64,000 bases of DNA from IMG/VR virus record IMGVR_UViG_3300022602_000037; one strand, written 5' to 3'. Position 1 is the first letter of the stretch. The number at the start of each line of letters is the position of its first letter. Under the pieces are notes generated by a model. The model was not told the DNA's origin. It saw only the letters and a list, made by a program, of their open reading frames with translations, and did no database searches. The position numbers and the translations under genes are program-made. This stretch comes from a virus. Below, piece by piece: positions 2,841 to 25,344 of this stretch.

Positions 2841-3019
2841 TGACAGAACTTCATAAACGTACAATAGTCAGAGCACTGACTTATAGAATAGTAGCATTGC
2901 TAATCACAGCTATATGGACTGGATTAAGCGATGCTGTAATCATACATAGCATCTTAACTGCTGTGCATTATGTTATGGAAAGAATCTGGTTAAAAATTAA
3001 GTGGGGTCGAATTGAATAA
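2840..3019 (+). CDS. Small membrane protein, DUF2061-like (not in ORF track)
   Basis: Translated by hand: MTELHKRTIVRALTYRIVALLITAIWTGLSDAVIIHSILTAVHYVMERIWLKIKWGRIE (59 aa). The R..K/RALTYR...YxxERIW.KI.WG pattern is typical of DUF2061. It overlaps both neighbours. Confidence 0.7.
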   Translation: MTELHKRTIVRALTYRIVALLITAIWTGLSDAVIIHSILTAVHYVMERIWLKIKWGRIE

Positions 3020-4565
3020 GAACTTAACAGCAACTCAGAACGATTACGCATATTTCCTGCCAGCTACGTCAGGATTTTACAGTACATACATAGGTAAACA
3101 ACGTCACGGCAACTATGTAGATCCTGCTCGCATACCTGCTAGTTTTGGTCCTATGGGTATCGAAGCTATGAACTATCTAGATCCCAATGCGGCATTTTAT
3201 TATGACCATTGTTTGTATTCAGCGGGTCATGCGAATTTAGATTTGAATAAACACGATCCTAGCGAAGACATGTTCCGTAATCGCAACCGTGCTACTAGTT
3301 GGGTGTTAGGTGATTCAGGCGGATTCCAAATTGGTAAAGGCAAGTGGGAAGGTGACTGGAAAAATCCTAACTGCCCTAAGGCACAGAAGAAACGCGAACA
3401 AGTGCTTAAATGGATGGATGCACTTATGGACTATGGCATGTGTTTAGATATACCTGCTTGGGTTGCTCGTAGTCCCGAAGGTGCAAAAGCAACAGGCATT
3501 AGCACTTATGCAGAAGCAGTACAGGCTACATTTATTAACAATGATTATTTTATTAATAATCGCAATGGTAATTGCAAATTCTTAAATGTATTACAAGGTG
3601 AAAATCATACAGATGCCGAAGGATGGTATCAACATATGAAAAAGTATTGCGACCCTAAACAATATACTAATCATTTTAATGGTTGGGCGATGGGTGGACA
3701 GAATATGTGTGACATACATTTGACCTTAAAACGTCTAGTAGCGTTACGATTTGACGGCCTGTTAGAAAAAGGCGAACAAGACTGGATGCACTTCTTGGGT
3801 ACTAGTAAACTTGAATGGGCATTGATTTTAACAGATATACAACGTGCAGTTCGTAAGCATCATAATAGCGACTTTACTATTAGTTTTGACTGTGCTAGTC
3901 CGTTTTTGGCAACTGCTAATGGACAAATTTATGTACAAACAGAAATCAAAGATCGTGAAAAATGGTTGTATCGTATGCTACCTAGTTTAGACAATAAGAA
4001 ATATAAAAATGATAATCGATTATTCCAAGACGTAGTAGTACAAGACAAACATTTTGCTAATTTTGAAACAAGTCCTATCATGGACGGAGTCAAAGTTAAT
4101 GAAATCTGTATATATGGTCCAAACGATCTAAACAAAATTGGTAAGGTGGGCAAAACATCTTGGGATAGTTTTACCTATGCTATCATGATGGGACACAATG
4201 TATGGATGCATATCAATGCCGTACAAGAAGCAAATCGTCAGTATGATGCAGGATTGTGTCCTAGTATGCTTGTACAGGAAAAATTTGATAGACTTTATGC
4301 TAAGGATGTAATTGAAGCTATATTTGCAACAAGTGATCGAGGAACAGCAGACGCTATTGTAGACGAATTTAGTCGTTTTTGGATGGCTATTCCTGGTACT
4401 AGAGGATATACCGGTAAGAAAACTGTAAATCCAACTACAAAATATTTCGAATTGTTTGACGAAGTGGATACAGATAGTGTACAATCAGAAGATGAGCCAG
4501 ACTTCAGTGACGAAGTTTCCGATAAACTAGACGAATTAGAGGCTAGTGTACATGACATTACCTGA
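3012..4565 (+). CDS. dpdA: DpdA-like DNA-guanine transglycosylase (TGT fold; 7-deazaguanine insertion into DNA)
   Basis: TGT motifs LGDSGGFQ, MCLDIP, NVLQG, GWAMGG, MHFLG and ISFDCASP, clustered with folE, queE and a QueD-fold gene in a phage. TTG start; acidic C-terminal tail. Confidence 0.8.
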   Translation: MNKNLTATQNDYAYFLPATSGFYSTYIGKQRHGNYVDPARIPASFGPMGIEAMNYLDPNAAFYYDHCLYSAGHANLDLNKHDPSEDMFRNRNRATSWVLGDSGGFQIGKGKWEGDWKNPNCPKAQKKREQVLKWMDALMDYGMCLDIPAWVARSPEGAKATGISTYAEAVQATFINNDYFINNRNGNCKFLNVLQGENHTDAEGWYQHMKKYCDPKQYTNHFNGWAMGGQNMCDIHLTLKRLVALRFDGLLEKGEQDWMHFLGTSKLEWALILTDIQRAVRKHHNSDFTISFDCASPFLATANGQIYVQTEIKDREKWLYRMLPSLDNKKYKNDNRLFQDVVVQDKHFANFETSPIMDGVKVNEICIYGPNDLNKIGKVGKTSWDSFTYAIMMGHNVWMHINAVQEANRQYDAGLCPSMLVQEKFDRLYAKDVIEAIFATSDRGTADAIVDEFSRFWMAIPGTRGYTGKKTVNPTTKYFELFDEVDTDSVQSEDEPDFSDEVSDKLDELEASVHDIT

Positions 4566-4812
4566 TGAACGATTTAGAAGTATACAACGCACAGAAGAAT
4601 TCTTAACGGATTTAATGAATCCTCAAAAGACTCCACGTATTCCAAAAGAAATACGTGAGCAAGCTCGCTGGTGTTTGCGTCATTACCCTAGTTATCATAA
4701 TCTAAAAGAATTAGAACGTGCGGCACCTAATGTTGTACAAGAACGTATGGAAGATGTTAACCGTATGATAAAATATTGGGAAGAAGGAAAGAAATTTACA
4801 AATGAAAACTAG
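4552..4812 (+). CDS. Hypothetical phage protein
   Basis: Translationally coupled ORF MTLPDERFRS...WCLRHYPS. Confidence 0.7.
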   Translation: MTLPDERFRSIQRTEEFLTDLMNPQKTPRIPKEIREQARWCLRHYPSYHNLKELERAAPNVVQERMEDVNRMIKYWEEGKKFTNEN

Positions 4813-5689
4813 TTTAGTTATAGGTATGGGCATTGGTAATTTATATGCTAAAGTGTTATCCGAATTAGGTCACGGTGTTGTCACAGTGGATAGCGACCCC
4901 GCCAAAGGAGCAGACTTCGAAACAGTCGATGCGGCCATTGTAGCATGCCATATGTTTGATACTGTACATATTTGTACTCCTAATTTTACACATTTTGATA
5001 TTGCTACTAAAGTTGCTAAATGTTCTAATATAGTGTTCATTGAAAAACCAGGTGTTAGTACTAGTAACATATGGTATACATTAGTTAAGACATTTCCAAA
5101 TACACGCTTTATGATGGTAAAGAACAATCAATGGCGCAGTAATTTTTCAGAAATCAAACAAATGGCAGATCGGGCAAAAACTATTAATCTTCGTTGGATT
5201 AATAAAGATCGAATACCTAGTCCAGGAAGTTGGTTTACTACAAAAAAATTAGCATTTGGTGGAGTTAGTAGAGATCTAATGCCGCATTTATTAAGTTGGA
5301 TGACTAAATTAGATCCAAACTATAAAAATTCAGAAAGATTACTGCAAACACATCATCAACGTTGGAAATTAGAAGATTTGCTTACTACAGACTATGGTAC
5401 TGTAAATCCTAATGGTACATATGATGTAGACGATTTTTATTATTTAGAATATAAAACCAATAATAAACGTTGGTTATTGACTGCCGATTGGCGTAGTGTA
5501 GGCGATGAAAGGATACATATTCAATTTATATACCCTGAAGATGATTACGATATTGTTCCTTTAGGTTTATGCCCAGAAGATGCATATAAAAGTATGATCG
5601 AAGACGCTATTGCAAACCTAAATAATAATGAGTTCTGGAATAATCAATTAGAACAAGATTTGTGGATACACGAACAAATATCAATATGA
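4802..5689 (+). CDS. Gfo/Idh/MocA-family NAD(P)-dependent oxidoreductase
   Basis: VIGMGIG Rossmann, ICTPNFTH, FIEKPG and GGVSRDLMPH (GGxxxDxxxH). Confidence 0.85.
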   Translation: MKTSLVIGMGIGNLYAKVLSELGHGVVTVDSDPAKGADFETVDAAIVACHMFDTVHICTPNFTHFDIATKVAKCSNIVFIEKPGVSTSNIWYTLVKTFPNTRFMMVKNNQWRSNFSEIKQMADRAKTINLRWINKDRIPSPGSWFTTKKLAFGGVSRDLMPHLLSWMTKLDPNYKNSERLLQTHHQRWKLEDLLTTDYGTVNPNGTYDVDDFYYLEYKTNNKRWLLTADWRSVGDERIHIQFIYPEDDYDIVPLGLCPEDAYKSMIEDAIANLNNNEFWNNQLEQDLWIHEQISI

Positions 5690-6591
5690 AAGTAAAATGT
5701 TTACAAACTCAAGGTCGAGGCTACTTTGAAGAAGTAGATTACGAAATTGGACCATGGGCACAAGATAGTATATATGTTCGTGCTGTTATGACAGGTGTTT
5801 GCCGTAGCGACATAGATATGATGATGGGAGAATTTGGACCATTACCCTTACACATGCAGGGCCATGAAGGTATTGGGCAGGTTATGACAGTAGGAGCAAA
5901 TTGTAACGATGTTCAAGTAGGTGATTATGTTGCTACACGTGGCGAACCTGCTTATGCTGATCAATATACTGTACGCAAAGATGAATATGTAAAGATTCCA
6001 GAAGCACATCCTCGCTATATTTTAGAACCAGTAGCTTGTGGTATCAATCTTATCAATCAGGCTAAAACATATTTCCAAGACCGTCAGGGTAGAAATGAAA
6101 ACAACAGAGTACTAATCCTGGGTAGCGGATTCTTAGCATGGGTGGCTTATCATACCTTACGTCTAAATGGTTATATCTTTCATGTAGATGTATTAGGGCA
6201 TAGTAACAAAGAATTATGGAATGATCGATTGTTGCCAAGTACTATCGAAAACTATGATATTGTTATCGATCTAAGTGGCAATTACGAATTAGGCACACAG
6301 ATTAACCTAAATAACAATGCGGTCATTATCGATGGCGTTGGTAAGGCAGTATCAAAACAAGAAGCACAGCAACAACTTTGGAAGGCTGTTACTACTATTA
6401 AACCGAGTCCACGTAATCCTGAGTTCATAGATTGTATGCGCATGGCCAAGTATTGGATTGAAAACGGTTATCTCGAGGTTGATCATTTCTGGACAAGATC
6501 ATATAATCGTACTACAGAATGGCAACAAGCGTTTGCGGACGGCGCTAATCGTCCGAGTGGTTACAGCAGAGGCTATATCAAATGGGATTAA
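5686..6591 (+). CDS. Zn-dependent medium-chain (polyol/sugar) dehydrogenase
   Basis: GVCRSD catalytic-Zn Cys, GHEGIG motif, LEPVAC and ILGSGFLA. The 4-Cys structural Zn lobe is absent. Confidence 0.85.
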   Translation: MKVKCLQTQGRGYFEEVDYEIGPWAQDSIYVRAVMTGVCRSDIDMMMGEFGPLPLHMQGHEGIGQVMTVGANCNDVQVGDYVATRGEPAYADQYTVRKDEYVKIPEAHPRYILEPVACGINLINQAKTYFQDRQGRNENNRVLILGSGFLAWVAYHTLRLNGYIFHVDVLGHSNKELWNDRLLPSTIENYDIVIDLSGNYELGTQINLNNNAVIIDGVGKAVSKQEAQQQLWKAVTTIKPSPRNPEFIDCMRMAKYWIENGYLEVDHFWTRSYNRTTEWQQAFADGANRPSGYSRGYIKWD

Positions 6592-7121
6592 ACACTGAAG
6601 AAAGACAAGGTGTTACGTACTTTACAGGCTACGAAGTTGAACATACAGTTTGTCATGGTATGTACACACTATTTGTAGTTGGTACACCGCCAGTTGAAGA
6701 TATACTCCGTATTGCCGATGATAGTCAGGCCCTTTTAGACGAGTCTAAACGCATTAAACATATCTACTTTGGTACTAGTCAAAGTTTCAATCCTTTAAGT
6801 ATCACACACGACCAATACAAACGCTGGGATGATGTTATTATTCCATGCCTAAAGAAAGACTACTGGGTTACATTAGACTTTGATGTTGCTCATGTAGAAG
6901 GAGTACTTGAATCTTGCTATTGTGAATATCCAAGATTCGTACCAATGATTAGCTGTAAGATTCCTTACATCAATCAACTTAACTATAACGCCACACTTAA
7001 ACTAGATGATCTTACTTGGGGTAAGACTAATCCGGGTGTGTGGACACATCAACTACATGATCTAATGAGTAAGGACAAGTATACTTATTGGGATCAATAT
7101 ACACAAGATACACCAACATGA
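6582..7121 (+). CDS. Hypothetical protein in the deazaguanine cluster
   Basis: 179-aa ORF overlapping both neighbours; FTGYEVEHT, HIYFG and NPGVW segments; no family recognised. Confidence 0.75.
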   Translation: MGLNTEERQGVTYFTGYEVEHTVCHGMYTLFVVGTPPVEDILRIADDSQALLDESKRIKHIYFGTSQSFNPLSITHDQYKRWDDVIIPCLKKDYWVTLDFDVAHVEGVLESCYCEYPRFVPMISCKIPYINQLNYNATLKLDDLTWGKTNPGVWTHQLHDLMSKDKYTYWDQYTQDTPT

Positions 7122-7507
7122 TTATTAGACAAGACGTTCGACCAAACAAGATGATCTGGGTCACCTTCCAAAAAGAAGGCATCCATGCCTATCCAGCGGC
7201 CGCAACTGATCCAAACTTAGCAACAGGAGATGAATATGATGTATCGTTTTTGGCTACTCCTCATCGCCATATATTCCATTTTCGCGTTTGGCTTTCAGTT
7301 ACCCACAACGACCGTGATGTCGAATTCATCCAGTTCAAACGCTGGTTGGAAAATTTATACAAAGACAGTATACTAAAACTAGATTATAAAAGTTGCGAGA
7401 TGATGTCAGATGATTTATATGACATGATTTCACAAAAGTATCCCAACCGTGAGGTTTGGATTGAGGTCTCCGAAGACGGAGAAAATGGTTCATTTATTAA
7501 ATATTAA
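7118..7507 (+). CDS. QueD/6-pyruvoyltetrahydropterin-synthase (T-fold) paralogue, DpdL-like
   Basis: EGIH..., FLATPHRHIF (LxxxHRHxF in place of the QueD CxxxHGH), SCEMM and IEVSED; about 129 aa. Confidence 0.7.
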   Translation: MIIRQDVRPNKMIWVTFQKEGIHAYPAAATDPNLATGDEYDVSFLATPHRHIFHFRVWLSVTHNDRDVEFIQFKRWLENLYKDSILKLDYKSCEMMSDDLYDMISQKYPNREVWIEVSEDGENGSFIKY

Positions 7508-7518
7508 GGAAAGCTATA

Positions 7519-7776
7519 ATGGCTAAGAACTACAAGGACATTAATTATTTAGAAACCCGTCCTGATATCGTTAAGATCTTTGATGATCTAGAGGCATTCC
7601 ATAATTGGTGCCGTTTGGAACTTTGTGAGTTCAACCCAGCCCATCTTTATAATAGAGAAAGCTGGCAGTGGCGTAATTTTGATAAGACCCGCCGTCCTAA
7701 GAAACCTGGAAATGGTGAGCGCAAACCTTACTTAGGCAAGAATCCTCGTCCTTACAATGAACGTATTTCTAATTGA
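7519..7776 (+). CDS. Hypothetical basic protein
   Basis: AAGGA RBS; IFDDLEAF..WCR pattern; basic C-terminus. Confidence 0.7.
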   Translation: MAKNYKDINYLETRPDIVKIFDDLEAFHNWCRLELCEFNPAHLYNRESWQWRNFDKTRRPKKPGNGERKPYLGKNPRPYNERISN

Positions 7777-8848
7777 TCTAGAAGCAGTAGAAACAAGGTA
7801 CACTGGCGAATGGAAGCGCCATGTACCTGCTCTCTTACGAAAGGCAAGACACAATGTTCAAGTTATATCTGGGCCTACGGATATTCCTACAGCCACTACT
7901 CCTGGTGCTTTTCTTAATTTTGGCGGCACCAATATCTATAAGTCTAGCCAAGTGGAACAAATGGGGCGCCTATTTTGCTCCGGATCAGTACAGCCTGGCG
8001 ATCACTTCTTGTTTACCGATGCTTGGCATCCTGGCATCATAAACTTAAAGTACATGAGTGAACTACTAGGCATCCCAGTAACAACACACGGACTATGGCA
8101 TGCCGGTAGTTATGATCCCCAAGATTTCTTAGGACGACTAGTTGGTAACAAACCCTGGGTACGTCATGCTGAGAAAAGTTTTTTTGCGGCATTTGATCAC
8201 AATTACTTTGCTACCCAATTCCATATTGATATGTTCCATCATAATTTATTAAATGATGGCATGGTTGAAAATCCTTGGGAGGAAGAAGACAAAGCAGACA
8301 TGATTGGAGATAAGAAGTATGTTCGCACAGGTTGGCCCATGGAGTATATGGACGATACATTAACCATGTATAAGAATATGCCCAAGCGTGACTTAATTCT
8401 TTTTCCGCATCGCATAGCACCCGAGAAGCAAGTTGAGATTTTTAGAGACTTAGCTACACACTTACCGCAGTATGAATTTGTAGTATGTCAGGATCAACAG
8501 CTAACAAAAAATGAATATCATAATTTGTTAGGCGAAGCAAAGATGGTGTTTAGTGCTAACTTACAAGAAACTTTAGGAATTAGTTGCTACGAAGGTGCAG
8601 TAGTTGATGCTATTCCCATGGTCCCGGATCGGTTGAGCTATACAGAAATGTATTATGATATGTTCAAGTATGACAGTAAATGGACTGAAAGCTATGATGC
8701 TTATACAGTATATCGTCCAGACTTATGTCGTGCTATCATGACACATATGGATTATTATTCTACGAGAATACCCCACATACGCAAACAAGCAAAGGATTTA
8801 CATGACAACTTCTTCAGCGCTACCGGACTACTCGATAACATCAAGTGA
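7757..8848 (+). CDS. GT-B fold (GT4-like) glycosyltransferase
   Basis: LFTDAWHPG, LWHAGSYDP, FPHRIAPEKQ and the C-terminal ETLGISCYE (Ex7E) followed by PDRLSYTE, typical of retaining GT-B enzymes. Confidence 0.8.
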   Translation: MNVFLIDLEAVETRYTGEWKRHVPALLRKARHNVQVISGPTDIPTATTPGAFLNFGGTNIYKSSQVEQMGRLFCSGSVQPGDHFLFTDAWHPGIINLKYMSELLGIPVTTHGLWHAGSYDPQDFLGRLVGNKPWVRHAEKSFFAAFDHNYFATQFHIDMFHHNLLNDGMVENPWEEEDKADMIGDKKYVRTGWPMEYMDDTLTMYKNMPKRDLILFPHRIAPEKQVEIFRDLATHLPQYEFVVCQDQQLTKNEYHNLLGEAKMVFSANLQETLGISCYEGAVVDAIPMVPDRLSYTEMYYDMFKYDSKWTESYDAYTVYRPDLCRAIMTHMDYYSTRIPHIRKQAKDLHDNFFSATGLLDNIK

Positions 8849-9221
8849 TACTATAACTATAAGTACATTAGATACAAGTACATTTGGTAATATCACTGTT
8901 AGTAATAATACCGGATCAAGTTATTATCACGGTGGCGGTGCTAGCACAAGTACCGTGACTATTGGTGGTATAACTGGCTATACGCTTGGCTCAGGCCTAA
9001 CTAGTAGCGGTACCATTAGCGTTGCTCCATTGACTGTAGATCAAATAACCAGTTTTACATTACCGGTAGATTGGCAAGATCGTTTTCCAGATTGGGATAA
9101 AGTTAAAAAAATGTGTGAAGAATATCCCGGATTAAAAATAGCATTTGAAAAATTCCAAACAACTTACAAACTAGTAGTAGATCATTATGATACTCCAGAA
9201 GATAAAAGACCTAAGCCTTAA
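8802..9221 (+). CDS. Hypothetical protein, Thr/Ser/Gly-rich N-terminus
   Basis: Low-complexity N-terminus plus C-terminal MCEEYPGLKIAFEKF helix. Confidence 0.65.
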   Translation: MTTSSALPDYSITSSDTITISTLDTSTFGNITVSNNTGSSYYHGGGASTSTVTIGGITGYTLGSGLTSSGTISVAPLTVDQITSFTLPVDWQDRFPDWDKVKKMCEEYPGLKIAFEKFQTTYKLVVDHYDTPEDKRPKP

Positions 9222-9681
9222 TTGGTTAGAACAACATGATCGCAAACGTGTTATCATGGATCGTATATGCAACGAGCCATACCTTGAACGCTACTACATC
9301 TTTCTAAAAGATCGTAAACGTTTTCCCTTTAATATATTTTTACATAAATTCTTAAAAGGTGATCCAGACGATGTACATGATCATCCATGGCCATACGCTA
9401 CTTTAATTCTTAAAGGCGGCTACTATGAATGGATTCCGCAATTCAATGCCGACGGAACAAAATCGTGCGAAGTTAGGAAATGGCGAGGTCCGGGACACTT
9501 CCGTATTTGCAAACCAACAAGTTATCATCGTATTGAATTAAAAGAAGGTGTTACTGCATGGACATTGTTTATGCCAGGGCCACAACGCCGTGAATGGGGA
9601 TTCCTTGTTAATAACAAGTGGATCCACAATGATGAATATTTAACAGATAGAAAGAATGGCTTACTTCCCAACACCAATTAA
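9187..9681 (+). CDS. Cupin (double-stranded beta-helix) metalloprotein
   Basis: LHKF..GD.DDVHDHPW...ILKGGYYE...YHRI...WTLF..GP..REWGF gives His-x-His...Glu...His metal ligands. Confidence 0.7.
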   Translation: MILQKIKDLSLNWLEQHDRKRVIMDRICNEPYLERYYIFLKDRKRFPFNIFLHKFLKGDPDDVHDHPWPYATLILKGGYYEWIPQFNADGTKSCEVRKWRGPGHFRICKPTSYHRIELKEGVTAWTLFMPGPQRREWGFLVNNKWIHNDEYLTDRKNGLLPNTN

Positions 9682-10051
9682 CACATCAACAGCTAATCAC
9701 GCTGTTCCTGTTCCGACTAATACTACCGTACCAAATGGTGGTTACATAACATCGACTGGAACTAATACTGTCTGGACTACTGGTACTAGTGTCGCCAATC
9801 CTTATGACGCGGTAATGGTTTTCAACCAAGGTGACCCTCCTCAATTAGACGTTAAAGGTCGAATGGTTATTAATGGACGCGATTTAGAAGAACGGTTGAA
9901 TACAATAGAAAAAGTCTTGAATATTCCAGAAAGAGATGTTATACTAGAACATAAACATCCAAAGCTCAAAGAACTGTACGATGCGTACATAAATGCTTTG
10001 GGCAAATATAGAACATTTGAAGCAATTAAAGGAGATGAAGATGCAAGTTGA
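9656..10051 (+). CDS. Hypothetical protein
   Basis: Thr-rich N-terminus, DLEERLNTIEKVL coiled coil and KHPKLKELYDAY. Confidence 0.65.
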   Translation: MAYFPTPINTSTANHAVPVPTNTTVPNGGYITSTGTNTVWTTGTSVANPYDAVMVFNQGDPPQLDVKGRMVINGRDLEERLNTIEKVLNIPERDVILEHKHPKLKELYDAYINALGKYRTFEAIKGDEDAS

Positions 10052-10280
10052 ACAATTACACGAATCAGTTAAAGATACTTATAAAGAGATGGTTATTAAA
10101 GAACATGAAGGATTTCGCCTTGTGTTGAAAAAGCATGAAGTAATCAGTCCTAAAGGCCTATTTGCTCTCGATTTAGAACAACAACATTTGAAAGATGGCG
10201 AAATAGTTAACTCTTGTACTTACAATTTCTTTATGGATAAAGAAGAATTGCAAGTATTAGCCTCGGGTTTGACTGCATGA
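10041..10280 (+). CDS. Hypothetical protein
   Basis: AAGGAG RBS before ATG 10041; ATGA overlap with the next gene. Confidence 0.6.
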   Translation: MQVEQLHESVKDTYKEMVIKEHEGFRLVLKKHEVISPKGLFALDLEQQHLKDGEIVNSCTYNFFMDKEELQVLASGLTA

Positions 10281-10777
10281 AGAAACTATATTATAGTTGG
10301 GCAGACATTGAAGGTGCTTGTTTAGATCTTGCTAGACAAATTAGACAAGATAACTGGCAACCCGATTATATTGTAGGGATTGGACGCGGTGGATTGATCC
10401 CTGCCACATTGTTAAGCCATTATATGGATGTACCTATGCAAACTTTAGATGTAAGTTTGCGTGATGGTGGTACTACTATCAGTAATGCCGGTATGGCAGA
10501 TGATGCTTACGAAGGTAAAAACATTCTTATTGTAGATGATATTAATGATCAAGGCAGTACCATTGCATGGATTAAAAAAGATTGGCGTAAAATGTCTTTA
10601 CCTAGTGCTATACGTTGGGATAATGATATCTGGGGTAAGACTGTTCGATTTGCTGTATTAACAGATAACTTTGCTAGTAATAGCGAATCGGATTATCATG
10701 TTTGGGAAGTTAATAAAATAGAAGAAGATTGCTGGTTGGTTTATCCTTGGGAGGAGTATTGGAAATGGCGTCGTTAA
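10277..10777 (+). CDS. Type I purine phosphoribosyltransferase (Gpt/XGPRT-like)
   Basis: IVGIGRGGLIPA, PRPP loop ILIVDDINDQGST and terminal WLVYPWE. Confidence 0.9.
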   Translation: MKKLYYSWADIEGACLDLARQIRQDNWQPDYIVGIGRGGLIPATLLSHYMDVPMQTLDVSLRDGGTTISNAGMADDAYEGKNILIVDDINDQGSTIAWIKKDWRKMSLPSAIRWDNDIWGKTVRFAVLTDNFASNSESDYHVWEVNKIEEDCWLVYPWEEYWKWRR

Positions 10778-10965
10778 CAGGAAGTATCGTTAAACTTATC
10801 TTTGGTATTGCATTAATATTAATTGCAGTTATATTTGGTCCAATAGTGGGTATTTGGAGTTTGAACACTTTGTTCCCAGTGTTAAATATTCCATTTACTT
10901 GGCAGACTTGGTTAGCCTTTAATTGTTTATTTGGTGGCACTATTGCTAGTAGGTTAAAAAAATGA
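10765..10965 (+). CDS. Small membrane protein
   Basis: Two hydrophobic segments; GGAGG upstream. Confidence 0.6.
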   Translation: MASLTGSIVKLIFGIALILIAVIFGPIVGIWSLNTLFPVLNIPFTWQTWLAFNCLFGGTIASRLKK

Positions 10966-11141
10966 GTTTGACTGTACAAGAAATCAAAGAAAAAATCGAT
11001 ATGGTTAATAAAGATATTGAAAACCTTCGATCCGATGTAGGTAATGATCGTAAAATATCTATACTAGTCGACTATATCGATTACTTAAAAGACGAATTGA
11101 AAGAGGCTCAAATTGCAGAACGATCTCATAAAGGCACTTGA
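10962..11141 (+). CDS. Small coiled-coil hypothetical protein (not in ORF track)
   Basis: Translated by hand: MSLTVQEIKEKIDMVNKDIENLRSDVGNDRKISILVDYIDYLKDELKEAQIAERSHKGT (59 aa). ATGA overlap with the upstream gene; it fills the apparent gap. Confidence 0.6.
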   Translation: MSLTVQEIKEKIDMVNKDIENLRSDVGNDRKISILVDYIDYLKDELKEAQIAERSHKGT

Positions 11142-11487
11142 TGAAAAAAGAGCACCATGGACAGAAATTGAATACAGAACTAAAGAGTTCTGGGTCTTCC
11201 GAGATGCATTTCCGGTTACCCAAGGGCATTTGTTATTTGTGCCTACCTACGAAAAATCTGAAAACTTATACGAGTGCTACAAGGCCGCATACAAATTTGG
11301 CTATGAAGGAGTTGAAACAGAAAAATGGGATGGGTTCAACATCGGACAAAATGTTGGGCAGACTGCTGGCCAAACAGTAATGTATCCTCATGTACATATG
11401 ATTCCAAGACGAAAAGGAGATATGGAAGATCCACGCGGTGGAGTTCGGCATGTTATTCCGTCAAAAGGAAATTATGAAAGAACTTAA
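11113..11487 (+). CDS. HIT-family nucleotide hydrolase
   Basis: DAFPVTQGHLLFVP, GFNIGQNVG..AGQTV and the histidine triad HVHMIPR. Confidence 0.92.
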   Translation: MQNDLIKALDEKRAPWTEIEYRTKEFWVFRDAFPVTQGHLLFVPTYEKSENLYECYKAAYKFGYEGVETEKWDGFNIGQNVGQTAGQTVMYPHVHMIPRRKGDMEDPRGGVRHVIPSKGNYERT

Positions 11488-11686
11488 TTCTGTTTGGGAA
11501 ATTAGATTAAACTGGTATAATCAAGACAAGTATTGGTGGAACCAAGTTTGTGCAGATGTAGTTGAAGTATTTGGCCTTCCTGGAGACAGATTCACTAGTC
11601 ATCCACATGAAGACTGTATGTTGTTTCGATTCAGATCAAAAAAAGATTATAATTTATGCAAAATTCTACTATCAGACAAAATTTAG
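11474..11686 (+). CDS. Hypothetical protein
   Basis: AAAGGA RBS; WWNQVCADVVEVFGLPGDRF. Confidence 0.6.
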   Translation: MKELNSVWEIRLNWYNQDKYWWNQVCADVVEVFGLPGDRFTSHPHEDCMLFRFRSKKDYNLCKILLSDKI

Positions 11687-11874
11687 ATTTTATATTTGTT
11701 ATATTGGCAAGCCTAGCATTTATAGGATTTGTCCTGTATATGGCTATACACTATCCACATGTAACAGTTCGATATGATTGTTCAATATCTGAGATTTCAC
11801 CCGATTATCCTATTCAAGTTAAAGAAGCATGTAGACAACTTCGAGCAGGAAATATCTTGCTATCGCCTAAATAA
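11656..11874 (+). CDS. Small membrane-anchored hypothetical protein
   Basis: One TM helix, then YDCSISEISPDYP..VKEACR. Confidence 0.6.
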   Translation: MQNSTIRQNLDFIFVILASLAFIGFVLYMAIHYPHVTVRYDCSISEISPDYPIQVKEACRQLRAGNILLSPK

Positions 11875-11885
11875 ACCTATATAAT
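11857..11885 (+). promoter_or_regulatory. sigma70-type promoter for folE-queE
   Basis: TTGCTA (11857-11862), 17-nt spacer, TATAAT (11880-11885); AGGAG RBS before folE. Confidence 0.6.
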
Positions 11886-11903
11886 ACTAACATAGGAGTA
11901 ATA

Positions 11904-12674
11904 ATGACTGAATCTAGAACATACGAACACGAAAATATTCTTGCTGGCGCAGAACAGCAAGACGATGATGACAAAAATTATAAAGAATGTAATCTAGCGG
12001 ATGTTATCCGCTTTCAAATGAAACGACGAGGCAAGCGTTTTTGGGCCGGTGACAACATTAGCGAGTTTGTCGACGAAGAACAAAAAGAAGTCTTAATCGA
12101 AGAAGCTACTAAGGCTTTTGAAAAAGTTTTAGATGCATTGCTGATTGATCGCGAAACAGATCCTAATAGCAAAGGCACTGCCAGACGTCTTGCTAAAATG
12201 TATTTTAATGAAATAATGAGTGGTAGATATGACCCAGCACCAGACGCAACAGCATTTCCAAATGATTCGGCGGACCGCTACGAAGGTATGTTGGTTGTCC
12301 GCAGTGAGCTTCGCAGTATGTGTAGCCATCATCACCAACCCGTTACTGGCGTTGCTTATATTGGTATTATTGCGGCTGAGAAACTTATCGGCTTATCAAA
12401 GTACACAAGAATCGCACAGTGGTGTGCCCGACGTGGTACTCTCCAGGAGGAACTTTGTAATGACATTGCTAGGGAAATCCAAAAAGCAACAGAAGCAAGA
12501 GATTTAGGTGTGTATATTCAAATGACACACGGATGCTGTGAGAATCGTGGTATTATGGCCAAGAGTAGTTTGACACAAACTACAGTACTCAAAGGTGCGT
12601 TCAAAGACGACCACGGTACAAAGAAAGAATTTTTTGATAACATTAAAATGCAACAGGAATACGCTTCCAAATGA
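11904..12674 (+). CDS. folE: GTP cyclohydrolase I
   Basis: TARRLAKMY, SMCSHHHQP, IGLSKYTR, LQEEL and HGCCENRG. Confidence 0.97.
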   Translation: MTESRTYEHENILAGAEQQDDDDKNYKECNLADVIRFQMKRRGKRFWAGDNISEFVDEEQKEVLIEEATKAFEKVLDALLIDRETDPNSKGTARRLAKMYFNEIMSGRYDPAPDATAFPNDSADRYEGMLVVRSELRSMCSHHHQPVTGVAYIGIIAAEKLIGLSKYTRIAQWCARRGTLQEELCNDIAREIQKATEARDLGVYIQMTHGCCENRGIMAKSSLTQTTVLKGAFKDDHGTKKEFFDNIKMQQEYASK

Positions 12675-12877
12675 TCAAAAAAGTATTTGCGAGAATACTA
12701 AGTGAAGCGTTATACTACTTAGGACATTGGATTAGTTTTCCAATGCACTACTGCGATTGGGCATGGTTGTACCCTACTTATAGTAGAATAATGTGCTGGA
12801 GCAGTGATGTCCAGGAGTGGGCGGGGAATGAATTACCTTGGAGGAAAATTGATGACGAAGACAGCACAGCAAATTAG
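12671..12877 (+). CDS. Hypothetical Trp-rich protein
   Basis: ATGA-coupled to folE. Confidence 0.55.
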   Translation: MIKKVFARILSEALYYLGHWISFPMHYCDWAWLYPTYSRIMCWSSDVQEWAGNELPWRKIDDEDSTAN

Positions 12878-13085
12878 TGATGAACTAATTTATCGTATGA
12901 AAACTACAAGCCTAAATAAGTTTGAGATTAAAAGAGAAGTTGGCCCTAACTGGTTGCCTGACGGAACTATTCCGTTTGATATTCGTGCTACTAAAGGCAT
13001 TGCTATTTTTACAGTATGGGCAGAAAGTGTTCAAGACGCAGAAGATCAAGTATCACAATTTTTAGAAAAAGACGAAGATGAGTAA
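12852..13085 (+). CDS. Hypothetical protein
   Basis: GGAGG RBS; overlaps the queE start. Confidence 0.6.
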   Translation: MTKTAQQISDELIYRMKTTSLNKFEIKREVGPNWLPDGTIPFDIRATKGIAIFTVWAESVQDAEDQVSQFLEKDEDE

Positions 13086-13935
13086 AATTAAAATCGCAGA
13101 ATTATTTTATAGTATACAAGGCGAAGGACGGTACATGGGCGTTCCTAGCGTGTTCCTTAGAACTTTCGGCTGTAATTTCCGCTGTGCGGGCTTTGGTATG
13201 CCACGCGGTGAACTGAGTACAGAAGCTGAAGACATTGCTACAGTAGTACATCTATATAACAAATATGAAGAACTTCCTTTGGTTAGTACAGGGTGTGATA
13301 GTTATGCTAGCTGGCATCCTAGTTTTAAAGATCTTAGTCCAATGCTTACTACAGGTGCCATAGCAGATCGTATTATGGAAATTCTTCCATATCATCAATG
13401 GCAAGACGAACATTTAGTTATTACAGGCGGAGAACCGTTGTTAGGTTGGCAACGTGCTTATCCTGACTTGTTAGATCATCCTAATATGCAGTCATTGAAA
13501 GAATTGACATTTGAAACAAACGGAACTCAAACGTTAACCGATGATTTTCAAAGGTATTTGTTAAACTGGCAAAAAAGCGAAGGACAGTTATATGCCAGAG
13601 ATGTTACATTTAGTGTTAGTGCTAAGTTAAGTAATAGTGGCGAAAAACGTGAAGATGCTATTCGCCCAGATGTATTGCTACAATATCAAGATGTAGGTTA
13701 TACATATCTTAAATTTGTAGTAGCAACAGAAGATGATGCATATGAAGCTATCGAAGTTATGGACATTTACAGACTTGCAGGATTTACAGGCGCAGTTTAT
13801 CTAATGCCAGTCGGCGGTGTCGAAAGTGTCTATGCATTAAACAATCGTCGTGTAGCAGAATTGGCTATGAAGGCAGGCTTACGCTACAGTGATCGACTAC
13901 AAGTGCCTTTATTTAAAAACGAATGGGGTACTTAA
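13078..13935 (+). CDS. queE: 7-carboxy-7-deazaguanine synthase (radical SAM)
   Basis: ELFYSIQGEG, VFLRTFGCNFRC...GCDS, VITGGEPLL, ETNGT, SVSAKL, LKFVV and YSDRLQV. Confidence 0.93.
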   Translation: MSKIKIAELFYSIQGEGRYMGVPSVFLRTFGCNFRCAGFGMPRGELSTEAEDIATVVHLYNKYEELPLVSTGCDSYASWHPSFKDLSPMLTTGAIADRIMEILPYHQWQDEHLVITGGEPLLGWQRAYPDLLDHPNMQSLKELTFETNGTQTLTDDFQRYLLNWQKSEGQLYARDVTFSVSAKLSNSGEKREDAIRPDVLLQYQDVGYTYLKFVVATEDDAYEAIEVMDIYRLAGFTGAVYLMPVGGVESVYALNNRRVAELAMKAGLRYSDRLQVPLFKNEWGT

Positions 13936-14098: not shown

Positions 14099-14534
14099 AC
14101 GACTTTTAGGTATTGATAAGTTAGAAGAAAACTTAGCATTACTTAAACAAATGGAAGCAGATGCACTAGCACGTACCGCAGAAGCTCAAAATGCTGAAAA
14201 AGATGCAGTAGAATCTGAACGCATTGCCAAATTAACTCCCAAAGAACGTGCAACAATACGTGGCGAACCTTGGGTTAGTGTGTTGGATACACATGTAAAC
14301 AAGGAAAACATTCGTAATGGATTCTTTGAGCTTGACTGGAACCCAGAGTTTATAGTACAATTAAAGGCAGCTGGTTATGGTTTTGAAGGCGATCCTGAAG
14401 AAGAAATTGTTGATCGTTGGTTTAGAGATTTGGCCGCAAACATGCTAGCAGAGGCAGGACAGGATCCTAGTAGATCAAGTGCTGGTTTTATTAATGTAAG
14501 TAAATTAGGCGGCGGAAGAGCCGAGGTTCAATGA
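14082..14534 (+). CDS. Hypothetical phage protein
   Basis: KERATIRGEPWVSVL...GFFELDWN...IVDRWF. Confidence 0.75.
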   Translation: MKKLIKRLLGIDKLEENLALLKQMEADALARTAEAQNAEKDAVESERIAKLTPKERATIRGEPWVSVLDTHVNKENIRNGFFELDWNPEFIVQLKAAGYGFEGDPEEEIVDRWFRDLAANMLAEAGQDPSRSSAGFINVSKLGGGRAEVQ

Positions 14535-15523
14535 CATATATTGTAGTCGATACTGCTAATACGTTTTTTCGTGCTAGACATGTAGTACAAGGTAGTGCTG
14601 ATATTAAACTTGGCATGGCATTTCATATTACTTTTAACAGTATTAAGAAAGCATGGCAAGACTTTGGAGGCACACATGTAGTATTCTGTCTCGAAGGTCG
14701 TAGCTGGCGTAAAGATGTTTATAAGCCATACAAAGCTAATAGGCAAGAAACTCGTGCGGCTATGACACAAAAAGAACAAGATGAAGATAAATTGTTCTGG
14801 GAAGCATTTGACGAATTTAAAAATTTCATTACAGAAAAGACTAACTGTACTGTAATGCGTCATGAAAACTTAGAAGCAGATGACTTGATTGCAGGTTGGA
14901 TACAAGCACATCCAGATGCAAAACATGTTATTATTTCGACAGATGGCGATTTTGCACAGCTAATCGGCCCTAATGTAAGTCAATATAACGGTGTAGGTGA
15001 CTTACATATTACACACGAAGGAATATTTGATGCGAAAGGTAAACCAGTTAAAGACAAAAAGACGGGAGAGCCTAAGCCTGCACAAGATCCAGAATGGATG
15101 CTATTCGAAAAATGTATGCGAGGCGACACATCCGACAATGTGTTTTCGGCTTACCCGGGAGTTCGTACGAAAGGGTCAAAGAATAAAGTTGGTCTCATGG
15201 AGGCATTTCAAGATCGTAAGACTCGCGGATATAATTGGAACAATCTAATGTTGCAACGTTGGGTCGACCATAATGGCGTCGAACACAGAGTCCTAGAAGA
15301 TTATCAACGCAATGTACAGTTGTGCGACTTAACAGCACAGCCTGAAGACATTAAGAATAAAATTAAAGAAACAATCAAAACTAACGCGGTGCCAAAAGAA
15401 GTTAGTCAAGTAGGTATTCGTATGCTCAAGTTCTGCAATGCTTGGGATATGAAAAAGATTGCTGATAACATTCAGCAGTATGCAGAGCCATTTCAGGCAA
15501 AATATCAAGGAGAAATTAAATGA
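14531..15523 (+). CDS. rnh: 5'-3' exonuclease / RNase H (T4 Rnh, FEN superfamily)
   Basis: VDTANTFFRA, SWRKDVYKPYKANR, EADD, STDGDF.QL and RGDTSDNV. Confidence 0.92.
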   Translation: MTYIVVDTANTFFRARHVVQGSADIKLGMAFHITFNSIKKAWQDFGGTHVVFCLEGRSWRKDVYKPYKANRQETRAAMTQKEQDEDKLFWEAFDEFKNFITEKTNCTVMRHENLEADDLIAGWIQAHPDAKHVIISTDGDFAQLIGPNVSQYNGVGDLHITHEGIFDAKGKPVKDKKTGEPKPAQDPEWMLFEKCMRGDTSDNVFSAYPGVRTKGSKNKVGLMEAFQDRKTRGYNWNNLMLQRWVDHNGVEHRVLEDYQRNVQLCDLTAQPEDIKNKIKETIKTNAVPKEVSQVGIRMLKFCNAWDMKKIADNIQQYAEPFQAKYQGEIK

Positions 15524-18963: not shown

Positions 18964-20148
18964 ATGTCACATACAGATCCAATTATCGACAAAATTATTG
19001 TAGCCCGTGTAGGTCTATTACTTCGCCATCCTTTCTTTGGTAATATGGCTACTCGCTTAAAAATTGAAGAAGGCTCCGAATGGATGGGCACTGCCGCTAC
19101 AGACGGTCGCACAATTTACTTTAATCGCGAATTTTTTGAACCTCTTACAGTTAAGCAAGTTGAGTTTGTGATTGCCCACGAAATTCTACATAATGTGTTT
19201 GATCACATGAGTCGTAGAGAAAGTCGTAATCCACGCATTTTTAATATTGCCGCAGACTATTGTGTAAACGGACAATTAGTCCGAGATCGAATTGGTGATC
19301 ATAATATTGAAGGTATCAAAATCTTCCATGACCAAAAGTACTACGGTATGGGTGCAGAAGAAGTATACGATAAAATCTTCGACGAAATGGACGAAGAAGA
19401 ACTAAATGCTCTTGGCCAGTTACTTGACGATCATATTGATTGGGGAGAAGATGGCAAAGATGGCAAGCCAAAATATTCTAAAGAAGAATTAAAACAGATT
19501 CGTGATGAAATCCGCGAAGCTACAATGCAGGCCGCACAAGCCGCAGGCGCTGGTAATACTCCTGCTAGTGTACAACGCATGATTAAAGAATTAACTGAGC
19601 CTAAGATGAATTGGCGTGAAATCTTACGTCAACAAATCCAAAGCACTATTAAGAATGATTTTAGTTTTATGCGTCCTAATCGTAAAGGTTGGCACATGAA
19701 TGCCATTCTTCCAGGTCAACAGTTTCAAGAAACTATTGATATTTGTGTTGCAATTGATATGTCAGGTTCTATTGGTGACGAACAGGCAAAAGACTTCTTA
19801 ACAGAGATTAAAGGTATTATGCAAGAGTATAAAGACTTTAAGATTAAAGTATGGTGCTTTGATACTAAAGTCTACAACGAAGCTGACTTTGATGGATATA
19901 ACATTGACGAGTTCGACAGCTATGAACCAATGGGCGGTGGCGGAACTGAGTTTGATGCCAACTGGGAATACATGAAAGAGAATGACATTCAACCTAAAAA
20001 GTTTATCATGTTTACTGATGGATATCCTTGGGGTAGTTGGGGTGATGAAAATTACTGTGATACAGTATTCATTATCCACGGTAATAACACTATTGTTCCA
20101 CCATTTGGAGAATATGCTTATTACGAATTTGCTAAAGAGGCGGCATAA
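18964..20148 (+). CDS. Putative metallopeptidase plus vWA domain protein (DUF2201-like), MoxR partner
   Basis: TAATDG, HEILH (HExxH), NIAADY, MIDAS IDMSGS, GGGGTEF and FTDG. Confidence 0.88.
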   Translation: MSHTDPIIDKIIVARVGLLLRHPFFGNMATRLKIEEGSEWMGTAATDGRTIYFNREFFEPLTVKQVEFVIAHEILHNVFDHMSRRESRNPRIFNIAADYCVNGQLVRDRIGDHNIEGIKIFHDQKYYGMGAEEVYDKIFDEMDEEELNALGQLLDDHIDWGEDGKDGKPKYSKEELKQIRDEIREATMQAAQAAGAGNTPASVQRMIKELTEPKMNWREILRQQIQSTIKNDFSFMRPNRKGWHMNAILPGQQFQETIDICVAIDMSGSIGDEQAKDFLTEIKGIMQEYKDFKIKVWCFDTKVYNEADFDGYNIDEFDSYEPMGGGGTEFDANWEYMKENDIQPKKFIMFTDGYPWGSWGDENYCDTVFIIHGNNTIVPPFGEYAYYEFAKEAA

Positions 20149-23941: not shown

Positions 23942-24509
23942 TTGTTGCTTCGCTTATAGTTAGTTTATATTCTAAAGTTGAATCAGTAAACAAAGAAATA
24001 TCATTTATAGATTTTTCATAATTAGATTCAAAAGGTATAACAAGTTTATCTAGTATGAGATCTTTGAAAATTAAATTAAAACTTCTAATTAGATAATTTT
24101 TTTCATTTTCAAGAGTTAGATATAACTGAACAGAATCTCCGATAAGTTTTTTATCGTAAAATTTTTGTCTTGTTGTTTCGGTCAATAAAAATGTCCAATG
24201 TTCACCCCAAAAAATTTCTATGTCTGGTGTTTTAGAGTCATTTATTAATTTTAATTTTTTAACTTTTATTGATATTTTATCAGCAGTGATATAAATCAAT
24301 TCACCATTTTCAACTTTAATATCTGCAAGTTTATTTTTACCTGTGACTATATTTTCGTAGTCTGTATAAGTAATTTCGATAGAATTAATTGTATTAGATT
24401 TTTCATTAGAAACAGAAATTACATTACCTAATTCGTCATAATGCGCATGAAAAGAAGGATTCCAAACTTGTGGAGGATCGGCAAATTTTATTTTTTTCTT
24501 TTTAGGCAT
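23934..24509 (-). CDS. Hypothetical protein in the GT cassette
   Basis: 191-aa ORF overlapping both neighbours. Confidence 0.7.
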   Translation of the reverse strand: MPKKKKIKFADPPQVWNPSFHAHYDELGNVISVSNEKSNTINSIEITYTDYENIVTGKNKLADIKVENGELIYITADKISIKVKKLKLINDSKTPDIEIFWGEHWTFLLTETTRQKFYDKKLIGDSVQLYLTLENEKNYLIRSFNLIFKDLILDKLVIPFESNYEKSINDISLFTDSTLEYKLTISEATND

Positions 24510-25344
24510 TTGGTAATGACTCCAACTTTTTTAACAGGTCAGGTGTTACAAAATTCTTTTCAACATAATGAAATACTTTAGGTTGCTTAATGTTGTTTAT
24601 TAATAATTCACCTTTAGAATTAAAAGTTGCCGATGCAACATCTTGCCAGCTATCAGGAATGAGGTTCCATCCTTGTATAGGCGCTTTCATATGAACAAAT
24701 TCCATAGGATTATTAATATCTAGGACTTGTTCTTGGGCCCCCATCATTTCAATTGTAATAGCTACTGCTAAATCCATACTTGGCCAATCTTGATATTTTT
24801 CTGGTGCAAAAATAGTCCAACATTTTTGCCAGTTGGAACATACAAATTCTAGCATCTTATAAAAATTATCTGCAAATTTTGATTTCTTAAAATAATGTAG
24901 AGCGTAGTATGGATTAGTTAAGTTGTTTGTTAAAAAAGTTTCTCTATGAAATGTATCTTTTATAACAGGTTCTAATTTGTAATTCATAATTCTATTACAA
25001 AATTTAACATCAAAATTACTACAATACTTCCACCATTGATCTATATCGCCTAATATCAACATATCGGAATCTAAAACCATAGTTTCATCATATGGCGATG
25101 CACTATATAACTGATATCTATGTTCTGTTTTAAGAGCGCTATTTTGATCTTGATTAAAATAGGGAATAGGAATTACTTGATCAAATAATTTTTTATATTT
25201 TTTTGGAACAAAGTCATCGGTAACAATAGAAATATTTTTAACCGTTATTTGACTAGATTTTATACTCAAAGCAAGAGCATAGGCCTGTTGAACATAATCC
25301 ACTGTATCTGTATTTTGAGCAAATACTAAAAATCCTTTAGACAC
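24502..25344 (-). CDS. GT-A fold (GT8-like) glycosyltransferase
   Basis: GFLVFAQN..VDY..A..LA.SIK, FDQVI, SPYDETMVLDSDM (DxD) and FVHMK. Confidence 0.7.
   Translation of the reverse strand: MSKGFLVFAQNTDTVDYVQQAYALALSIKSSQITVKNISIVTDDFVPKKYKKLFDQVIPIPYFNQDQNSALKTEHRYQLYSASPYDETMVLDSDMLILGDIDQWWKYCSNFDVKFCNRIMNYKLEPVIKDTFHRETFLTNNLTNPYYALHYFKKSKFADNFYKMLEFVCSNWQKCWTIFAPEKYQDWPSMDLAVAITIEMMGAQEQVLDINNPMEFVHMKAPIQGWNLIPDSWQDVASATFNSKGELLINNIKQPKVFHYVEKNFVTPDLLKKLESLPNA

Follow-up and report, generated by a model that had tools for sequence, protein, structure and literature searches.

We describe here a 64,000-nucleotide stretch of viral DNA (IMG/VR record IMGVR_UViG_3300022602_000037; below, the window means this whole stretch) whose replication genes enclose a cluster for the modification of DNA guanine. 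Our reading, which we regard as an even bet, is that this cluster is a DpdL-type deazaguanine DNA-modification module extended by a dedicated glycosyltransferase (GT), and that a sugar-bearing, deazaguanine-derived base is to be expected from it. The folds, motifs, gene order and linkage were obtained directly; from them we infer the chemistry of each step, the atom that would accept the sugar and the point at which it would be added. A preliminary description, made from the letters of the DNA, had drawn attention to a tightly overlapping run of genes from dpdA to the GT, and that run is confirmed: all the genes it named lie on the + strand, at or near the positions it gave them, joined by short overlaps (3012-4565, 4546-4812, 4802-5689, 5662-6591, 6582-7121, 7088/7118-7507, 7519-7776, 7757-8848). 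The genes on which our reading turns are these:

3012-4565, + strand: DpdA-like DNA guanine transglycosylase, 517 aa, with the fold of a tRNA-guanine transglycosylase (TGT) and an acidic, disordered C-terminal tail
6582-7121, + strand: U179, a conserved 179-aa protein, recurrent module partner, no family match
7118-7507, + strand: DpdL, a QueD-like T-fold paralogue and proposed 7-carboxy-7-deazaguanine (CDG) decarboxylase, by its LATPHRHIF signature and homology
7757-8848, + strand: GT4-type GT-B glycosyltransferase, 363 aa, by predicted fold and invariant residues
11904-12674, + strand: GTP cyclohydrolase I (FolE), PF01227 at 131 bits (cut-off 27), NF006824 at 7.9e-40
13078-13935, + strand: QueE-like radical SAM enzyme (CDG synthase), by five NCBIfam QueE models

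The window GT has no match in Pfam, the Glycos_transf_1 family (PF00534) included, a family recorded on several relatives 40-50% identical to the GT of Acidovorax phage ACP17 and on 29% of one Atlas cluster. Its AlphaFold2 (AF2) model, with a predicted local distance difference test (pLDDT) score of 94, contains the two Rossmann domains of the GT-B fold, and Foldseek and VIA place it nearest to retaining GT4 and GT5 enzymes (VIA Z 24-26, root-mean-square deviation (rmsd) 2.8-3.5 and 300-317 residues against sucrose-phosphate synthase, BshA, MshA and GlgM); the best match in BFVD is the ACP17 GT, at TM 0.86/0.91. R219, K224 and E271-x7-E279 are the same in all of 50 sequences, whose identity falls as low as 31%, and from general knowledge of GT4 enzymes we take the first two to be the Arg/Lys pair that binds the donor diphosphate and the last to be the EX7E motif. 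The early assignment of this gene to the GT-B glycosyltransferases is therefore borne out by a GT4-type predicted fold and by the retention of donor-binding and EX7E residues, and the protein is a real glycosyltransferase, apparently a competent one. At least 8,000 relatives were scored among metagenome proteins, and a scan of viral contigs with the GT of Pseudomonas jumbo phage PA5oct found nothing.

The transglycosylase is recognized by its fold rather than by any sequence library. Searches of Pfam, NCBIfam, PADLOC and PDB sequences returned no match to it, the Pfam TGT family (PF01702) is likewise recorded on none of 47 homologues, and TIGR00430 and TIGR00449 reach an E value of 0.05-0.07 only. 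With an AF2 model built from the 47-sequence alignment (pLDDT 89.8), the top 50 Foldseek matches are all tRNA-guanine transglycosylases (probability 1.0, E ~1e-6), and VIA aligns about 300 residues to TGTs at Z 17-18 and rmsd 4.2-4.9. The protein carries the motifs GDSGGFQ (D101) and SFDCAS (D293), and D101, S102, G104, D146, H260, G263 and D293 are invariant in the 47 homologues; we equate its catalytic aspartates with D102, D156 and D280 of TGT by motif resemblance and not by residue-level superposition. The structural zinc site of TGT (CxCxxC...H) is missing from the sequence, and the family alignment has no invariant cysteine. In hhalign comparisons the family scores 96% to the DpdA proteins of ACP17 and Xanthomonas phage BUDD and, weakly, 64% over 82 columns to DpdA3 (CGPG_00065) of Cellulophaga phage phiST, while the ACP17 protein itself matches DpdA2-type proteins of Vibrio phages nt-1 and VH7D. 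Judged by its modelled fold, with TGTs as the only matches, and by its motifs, the 517-aa protein is a distant DpdA, as first proposed and despite the silence of the sequence libraries, and we assign it to no subfamily. More than 7,800 relatives of this family were scored among metagenome proteins; viral-contig scans with three distant representatives found nothing.

The preliminary description had listed a QueD-fold gene between these two. A gene of the T-fold type does lie there, although it is not a canonical QueD. The protein (139 aa, or 129 aa from a start at 7118; phrog_17812) carries, at position 7250, LATPHRHIF, an instance of LxxxHRHxF, where QueD has CxxxHGH; LxxxHRHxF is the signature of DpdL, which has been proposed as a CDG decarboxylase (Cui, Hutinet et al., NAR 2023, PMC10516641). 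By tblastn it matches an ACP17 gene at 4e-36 and phiST gp040 at 2e-8; H23, H49, H51, H63 and an SCE motif are invariant, and H49, R50 and H51 are kept in 11 family members, phiST gp040 among them. Since its profile scores the QueD of ACP17 at only 32% by hhalign, the T-fold assignment rests on the published HHpred result together with the motif. The canonical QueD motif was not found within the 64-kb window, the rest of the phage genome lying beyond the search, and in PA5oct and ACP17 QueD is located elsewhere in the genome. No QueC above cut-off was found in four cultured GT-bearing phages (PA5oct, ACP17, Phosso and BUDD), and we propose that the module is of the QueC-less type, QueC itself not having been searched for in the window. 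The QueE-like protein scores 39-54 bits against five NCBIfam QueE models (E 2e-14 to 6e-10), below their cut-offs of 200-300; its radical SAM Pfam match is weak, C32 and C36 are invariant, and it shares 31% identity with the annotated CDG synthase of PA5oct.

Linkage joins the GT to these genes. We compared 80 IMG/VR loci chosen by GT similarity, 64 of which span dpdA to DpdL, and in those 64 gene order is conserved; across loci the GT looks better conserved than DpdA (≥79% against 39% identity), a comparison that the choice of loci by GT similarity deprives of weight and that we do not use as evidence. Beyond this clade, the GT stands among the deazaguanine genes of further phages, arranged as follows:

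PA5oct-like phages: dpdA-GT-DpdL
Acidovorax phage ACP17: FolE-U179-DpdA-GT-DpdL-QueE
Phosso: DpdL-GT … FolE … QueE
Xanthomonas phage BUDD (X1 similar): GT-DpdA-DpdL-QueE
Burkholderia phage BCSR5: GT and DpdL, ~3 kb apart
Synechococcus phage (cyanophage) BUCT-ZZ01: DpdA-DpdL-GT, the GT by hhalign at 99.6%

The BUCT-ZZ01 GT was missed by tblastn and recovered by hhalign, so that any list of phages with DpdL and no GT is an upper bound. Directly upstream of DpdA in the same phage (L127:4665-6008) lies a 447-aa protein with GT1-like C-terminal GRWEDGKNPEVF and ESFSFGMFE segments; it scores 2% only against the window GT family by hhalign, and the BUCT-ZZ01 cluster may hold a second, different glycosyltransferase.

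A survey of one genome per prokaryote species added 35 loci, 11 on short contigs of metagenome-assembled genomes, mostly visibly phage-like, and 24 on long bacterial contigs. In 23 of these 24 chromosomal loci a DpdA of this family adjoins the GT; DpdL is present in 13 and a Vut_1/YhhQ-type transporter in 15, and integrases, a CoiA-like nuclease, and HEPN or GmrSD proteins are encoded nearby. Islands in Ochrobactrum and Magnetospirillum (L102:2641-12828 and L111:2319-17488) carry the GT-DpdA pair with a YhhQ-type transporter or DpdL, and the pair also occurs in Methylobacterium, Pelagibacterium, Sulfitobacter and others. PADLOC defence models, Dpd included, matched neither the island DpdA nor the neighbours tested, and the GT-DpdA islands could be an undescribed modification-based defence island. 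Linkage of the GT with dpdA/dpdL, which the preliminary description had proposed to look for, is thus far beyond chance, in at least six phage lineages and 23 of 24 bacterial loci. The other families in the run fared unevenly: U179 keeps its place in all 64 loci spanning dpdA to DpdL, whereas the sugar-enzyme-like pair discussed below is found in half of them.

This distribution bears on two ways in which the GT might have nothing to do with modified guanine in DNA. It might act on an unrelated target (a hydroxymethyl-pyrimidine in DNA, a virion or host protein, or a cell-surface glycan) and sit where it does by an accident of the replication block; phage GT-B enzymes of such kinds are common, with many among the BFVD matches, and PA5oct and Phosso encode a ThyA-family protein. 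Yet the GT adjoins DpdA or DpdL in unrelated phage families and in the 23 bacterial loci, where no replication genes lie nearby, and no ThyA-family gene was found in ACP17 or BUDD, so that there, at least, the GT cannot serve a hydroxymethyl-pyrimidine made by such an enzyme. We consider an unrelated target very improbable. Alternatively, the acceptor of the GT might be one of the small molecules of the pathway, for example a pterin intermediate, without ever reaching DNA, or else a nucleotide made by the cluster's phosphoribosyltransferase (PRTase). Tetrahydrobiopterin glucosyltransferases (5ze7, 9v0l) are among its structural matches at Z 20.7, its nearest solved relatives BshA, MshA, GlgM and LmbT act on small acceptors, its neighbours include FolE and a PTPS-like T-fold protein, and the PRTase recurs in the cluster. 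These two structures do not, however, stand out from the dozens of GT4 enzymes at Z 21-26; the constant bacterial partner of the GT is DpdA, a DNA enzyme, in islands that have no FolE and a QueE in only one case (L123); and a free pterin glycoside has no apparent use in a phage replication module. A small-molecule acceptor of this kind therefore seems to us improbable, if slightly less so than a target unrelated to guanine.

The remaining genes of the cluster, and one upstream of it, are these:

1291-2064, + strand: short Ugd-like NAD dehydrogenase, 257 aa from MNIIIAGYGFVG, with Rossmann and central domains and the catalytic Cys
4546-4812, + strand: small conserved open reading frame (ORF), 88 aa, between dpdA and MocA, in 50/81 loci by tblastn, no family match
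4802-5689, + strand: Gfo/Idh/MocA-type oxidoreductase, accessory, weak PF01408 match (26 bits), GxGxG and EKP present
5662-6591, + strand: Zn-dependent MDR dehydrogenase, accessory, ADH_N, phrog_2640, GVCRSD and GHE ligands present
7519-7776, + strand: small basic ORF, 85 aa, isoelectric point (pI) 9.4, between DpdL and GT, in 75/81 loci by tblastn, no family match
9187-9681, + strand: cupin, cysteine-dioxygenase-like, clade-specific accessory, phrog_4786 at 1.4e-38, in 72/81 loci
10277-10777, + strand: xanthine/guanine-type PRTase, PF00156 at 67 bits, NF006613 (XPRT) at 6.6e-13
11113-11487, + strand: HIT-family nucleotide hydrolase/transferase, variable, PF01230, in 33/81 loci

Family matches thus uphold folE, queE (below curated cut-offs), PRTase, HIT and cupin as they had first been named. 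Three further ORFs that had gone unnamed lie between the GT and the PRTase (8802-9221, 9656-10051 and 9993-10280). The PRTase recurs in the cluster of three distant phages, namely the window, PA5oct (L001, ~16000) and BUCT-ZZ01 (L127:2748-3209, annotated XGPRT); the PA5oct copy is a 36% match and lies between DpdL and QueE.

U179 had no match in Pfam, PHROG, NCBIfam or PDB sequence searches. A homologue immediately precedes DpdA in ACP17, another comes next after MocA-MDR in PA5oct, and no relatives were found in phiST, BUDD or BUCT-ZZ01; its recurrence in the gene order indicates that U179 is a further partner of the module. Several possible relationships of U179 were set aside. As a QueE paralogue without cysteines it scores 0.4% probability in profile-profile comparison, on which a fold comparison could still differ; its relaxase-like Atlas matches (scores 0.91-0.92) share only 143-151 features, which is the chance range; and the Phosso 'glycosylase' at the U179 position is unrelated to it.

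The MocA protein has weak NCBIfam matches to sugar/inositol dehydrogenases and is 31% identical to PA5oct EST35_0362, and the MDR protein is 38% identical to PA5oct EST35_0363, which lacks the Zn ligands. In PA5oct the MocA-like, MDR-like and U179 genes are contiguous (250869-253146; L125:4370-6647), 27 kb from the DpdA block. MDR was not found in ACP17, Phosso or BUDD, where MocA was not searched for. Within the clade the pair is optional and accessory.

The gene upstream had been called a UDP-glucose dehydrogenase, and the name holds only in part: the Rossmann and central domains (PF03721 and PF00984) and the catalytic Cys are there, while the UDP-binding domain is missing. From its true start at 1291 the protein covers positions 69-295 of the 382 in phrog_9148, and its alignment to the Ugd structure 4a7p, in which GFGGACFPKD pairs with GYGGSCFPKD, stops at residue 302 of 446. 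The C-terminal UDP-binding domain was found neither here nor in any relative examined (265-307 aa), and the next gene is unrelated (phrog_12062). Among the loci the short Ugd gene lies upstream in 26, comes straight after the GT in 10 and is missing from 7. Because the protein is unable to bind UDP in the usual way, a sugar already attached to the base would be a more plausible substrate for it than UDP-glucose, if it acts on a sugar at all.

The general pathway that these genes suggest can be set out as follows. FolE would convert GTP to dihydroneopterin triphosphate, and a QueD from elsewhere in the genome or from the host would carry this on to 6-carboxytetrahydropterin (CPH4), from which QueE would make CDG. 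DpdL would then convert CDG to 7-deazaguanine (DG), and the TGT-fold DpdA would exchange guanine in DNA for that base. An NDP-sugar would be the donor from which the GT4 enzyme glycosylates the deazaguanine-derived base, before its insertion or on the DNA. MocA, MDR, the short Ugd and the cupin would be lineage-specific extras with a possible part in tailoring the sugar, and the short Ugd, being unable to hold UDP, may act after transfer; the PRTase would most simply recycle the guanine released by DpdA.

The preliminary description had placed the sugar at the 7-position and had proposed that the dehydrogenase pair, perhaps with Ugd or the cupin, tailors it, and both proposals are weakened. 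The decarboxylation proposed for DpdL would take away the one evident point of attachment at position 7, so that a sugar placed there would need C-glycosylation or some other role for DpdL; the acceptor could be elsewhere on the ring, the CDG carboxylate, or carbon 7. As for the tailoring, the pair is optional, the Ugd lacks its UDP domain and the cupin is specific to the clade.

A number of observations weigh against a sugar-bearing base, or against parts of the pathway that would lead to one. The solved structures closest to the GT act on small molecules or glycans and not on DNA, and T4-type DNA glucosyltransferases are not in its top 50 PDB structural matches; a cyanophage 'DNA alpha-GT' stands at rank 34 in BFVD (E 3e-5). 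The GT family is acidic, with a median pI of 5.4, a weak objection in that DpdA is acidic as well, and net charge does not discriminate a DNA acceptor from a small-molecule one. We know of no retaining GT4 enzyme that acts as a C-glycosyltransferase, and 7-deazaguanine, once decarboxylated, offers neither O, N nor S for attachment at position 7. In six bacterial loci (L099-L104) DpdA, the transporter and the GT occur without DpdL, from which it follows that the acceptor may not depend on a 7-substituent. MocA and MDR, always together, are present in only 32 of the 64 loci spanning dpdA to DpdL, and in the PA5oct copies, which look like pseudoenzymes, the GxGxG, EKP and Zn-ligand motifs are gone; the survival there of the MocA-MDR-U179 unit without its cofactor motifs connects U179 with the pair and speaks against a redox step being essential. 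It is unlikely, from its domain content, that the short Ugd makes UDP-glucuronate in the usual way, and it and the cupin are both absent from PA5oct, ACP17, Phosso and BUDD. No chemistry is known for the DNA of any GT-bearing phage. The DNA of PA5oct is reported to carry a modified G: several enzymes whose sites contain G fail to cut it, and nucleases that sense modified G attack it (PMC12191111). Finally, phiST has no detectable GT and makes plain 7-deazaguanine in its DNA (dDG) with DpdL and DpdA3, the only product shown for a DpdL system (PMC10516641), so that a GT is not needed for dDG itself.

This last observation also favours a different explanation, in which the DNA carries plain 7-deazaguanine, or CDG, and the GT-fold protein and U179 are helpers of DpdL and DpdA (a scaffold, a base carrier, or the maker of a transient activated intermediate) that leave no sugar behind. 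In E. coli, DpdL and DpdA of ACP17, taken apart from their neighbours, did not yield dDG, and the authors suggested that further enzymes are needed (PMC10516641); the ACP17 GT and U179 genes lie between and beside these two. The retention in PA5oct of MocA and MDR beside U179, despite their lost motifs, would likewise suggest structural roles. The invariance of R219, K224 and the EX7E glutamates is, on the other hand, the pattern of a catalytic enzyme that binds an NDP-sugar, and phiST copes without any such helper. We hold this explanation to be unlikely, while granting it more weight than either of the other two.

Nonetheless, a more detailed version of our reading, in which the GT glycosylates a deazaguanine-derived base, can be stated, and we advance it tentatively, at somewhat less than an even chance: that PA5oct, ACP17, Phosso, BUDD, BUCT-ZZ01, the window clade and the bacterial islands replace DNA guanine with a glycosylated 7-deazaguanine, and that in the aquatic clade the sugar, on base or DNA, is further tailored by the Ugd-like oxidase lacking a UDP domain and by the optional MocA/MDR pair, giving lineage variants. 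We found no published description of a glycosylated deazaguanine in DNA or of a GT in a deazaguanine DNA pathway, in agreement with the earlier statement that none of the known phage pathways uses one.

Among characterized systems, that of phiST (FolE, QueD, QueE, DpdL and DpdA3; PMC10516641) resembles the window cluster in four respects: the pathway is of the QueC-less type and stops at CDG or DG, the DpdL bears LxxxHRHxF, the DNA transglycosylase is a distant one with the TGT fold, and replication genes lie alongside. It differs in having no detectable GT or U179, in a DpdA3 of 259 aa against 517 aa in the window, and in carrying MazG and a small ATPase instead. PA5oct (Wroclawvirus) and ACP17 share the DpdA-GT-DpdL block with QueE, and PA5oct the PRTase, the FEN gene and MocA-MDR-U179 besides, but identities are only 29-56%, and neither phage has the short Ugd or the cupin. 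The glucosylation of hydroxymethylcytosine (hmC) in T4 by alpha- and beta-glucosyltransferases is our working analogy, with a GT-B enzyme encoded among base-modification genes, a bulky major-groove sugar drawn from an NDP-sugar, and lineage-specific extra tailoring. The T4 base, however, is a pyrimidine incorporated as a nucleotide, whereas the window base would be a purine analogue inserted by base exchange, and nothing in the window system obviously corresponds to the hydroxyl that accepts the sugar in T4. The bacterial Dpd system (DpdA/B/C, preQ0 to ADG), in which chromosomal DNA receives a deazaguanine, resembles the GT-DpdA islands in its TGT-fold DpdA, its mobile island and its nuclease-like neighbours; the islands differ in carrying the GT with DpdL or a YhhQ-type transporter, and in matching no PADLOC Dpd model.

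The module belongs to a replication block that fills the first ~16 kb of the window on the + strand; it opens with the C-terminal part of a family B DNA polymerase (81-1289) and closes with a FEN/RNase H gene (14531-15523). The order polB, clamp-like phrog_12062, dpdA … FEN is common to PA5oct, at 31-56% protein identity, and recurs in hundreds of IMG/VR contigs. Megablast of the region against phage records gave no match: none of them is close at the DNA level. In the rest of the window are genes for an ATPase, for an HNH endonuclease and, on the − strand, for the baseplate and tail of a myovirus; the source is a large uncultured aquatic myovirus with its deazaguanine module placed among its replication genes. 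The 394-aa HNH endonuclease of the replication block (18964-20148, + strand; phrog_1314, E 2e-111) has homing endonucleases in the corresponding region of PA5oct, one of which splits the PA5oct polymerase gene. Among the baseplate and tail genes is a single ORF of 5,610 aa (37829-54661, − strand), flanked on one side by the gene of a 987-aa protein whose N-terminus resembles a baseplate wedge and on the other by that of a baseplate wedge subunit of 1,155 aa. G+C content dips to 0.28 at 24001-26000, against ~0.36 on both sides, in a stretch with several − strand ORFs of 190-300 aa.

To our knowledge, the natural 7-deazaguanine DNA bases so far number eight, none of them with more than a small group at position 7, and every glycosylated DNA base we know of is a pyrimidine. 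If our reading is right, the product of this module would be a purine base that bears a sugar, a first for any genome, and would represent a new class of DNA hypermodification; its more detailed version adds lineage variants akin to the variation in hmC glucosylation among the T-even phages. The same reading could also explain why DpdL and DpdA of ACP17 failed on their own in E. coli. The GT/DpdA family is abundant, the module is present in five cultured phages, and the placing of a sugar on a deazapurine would bear on the evasion of restriction, CRISPR and type IV systems, on sequencing chemistry, and on the supply of enzyme tools.

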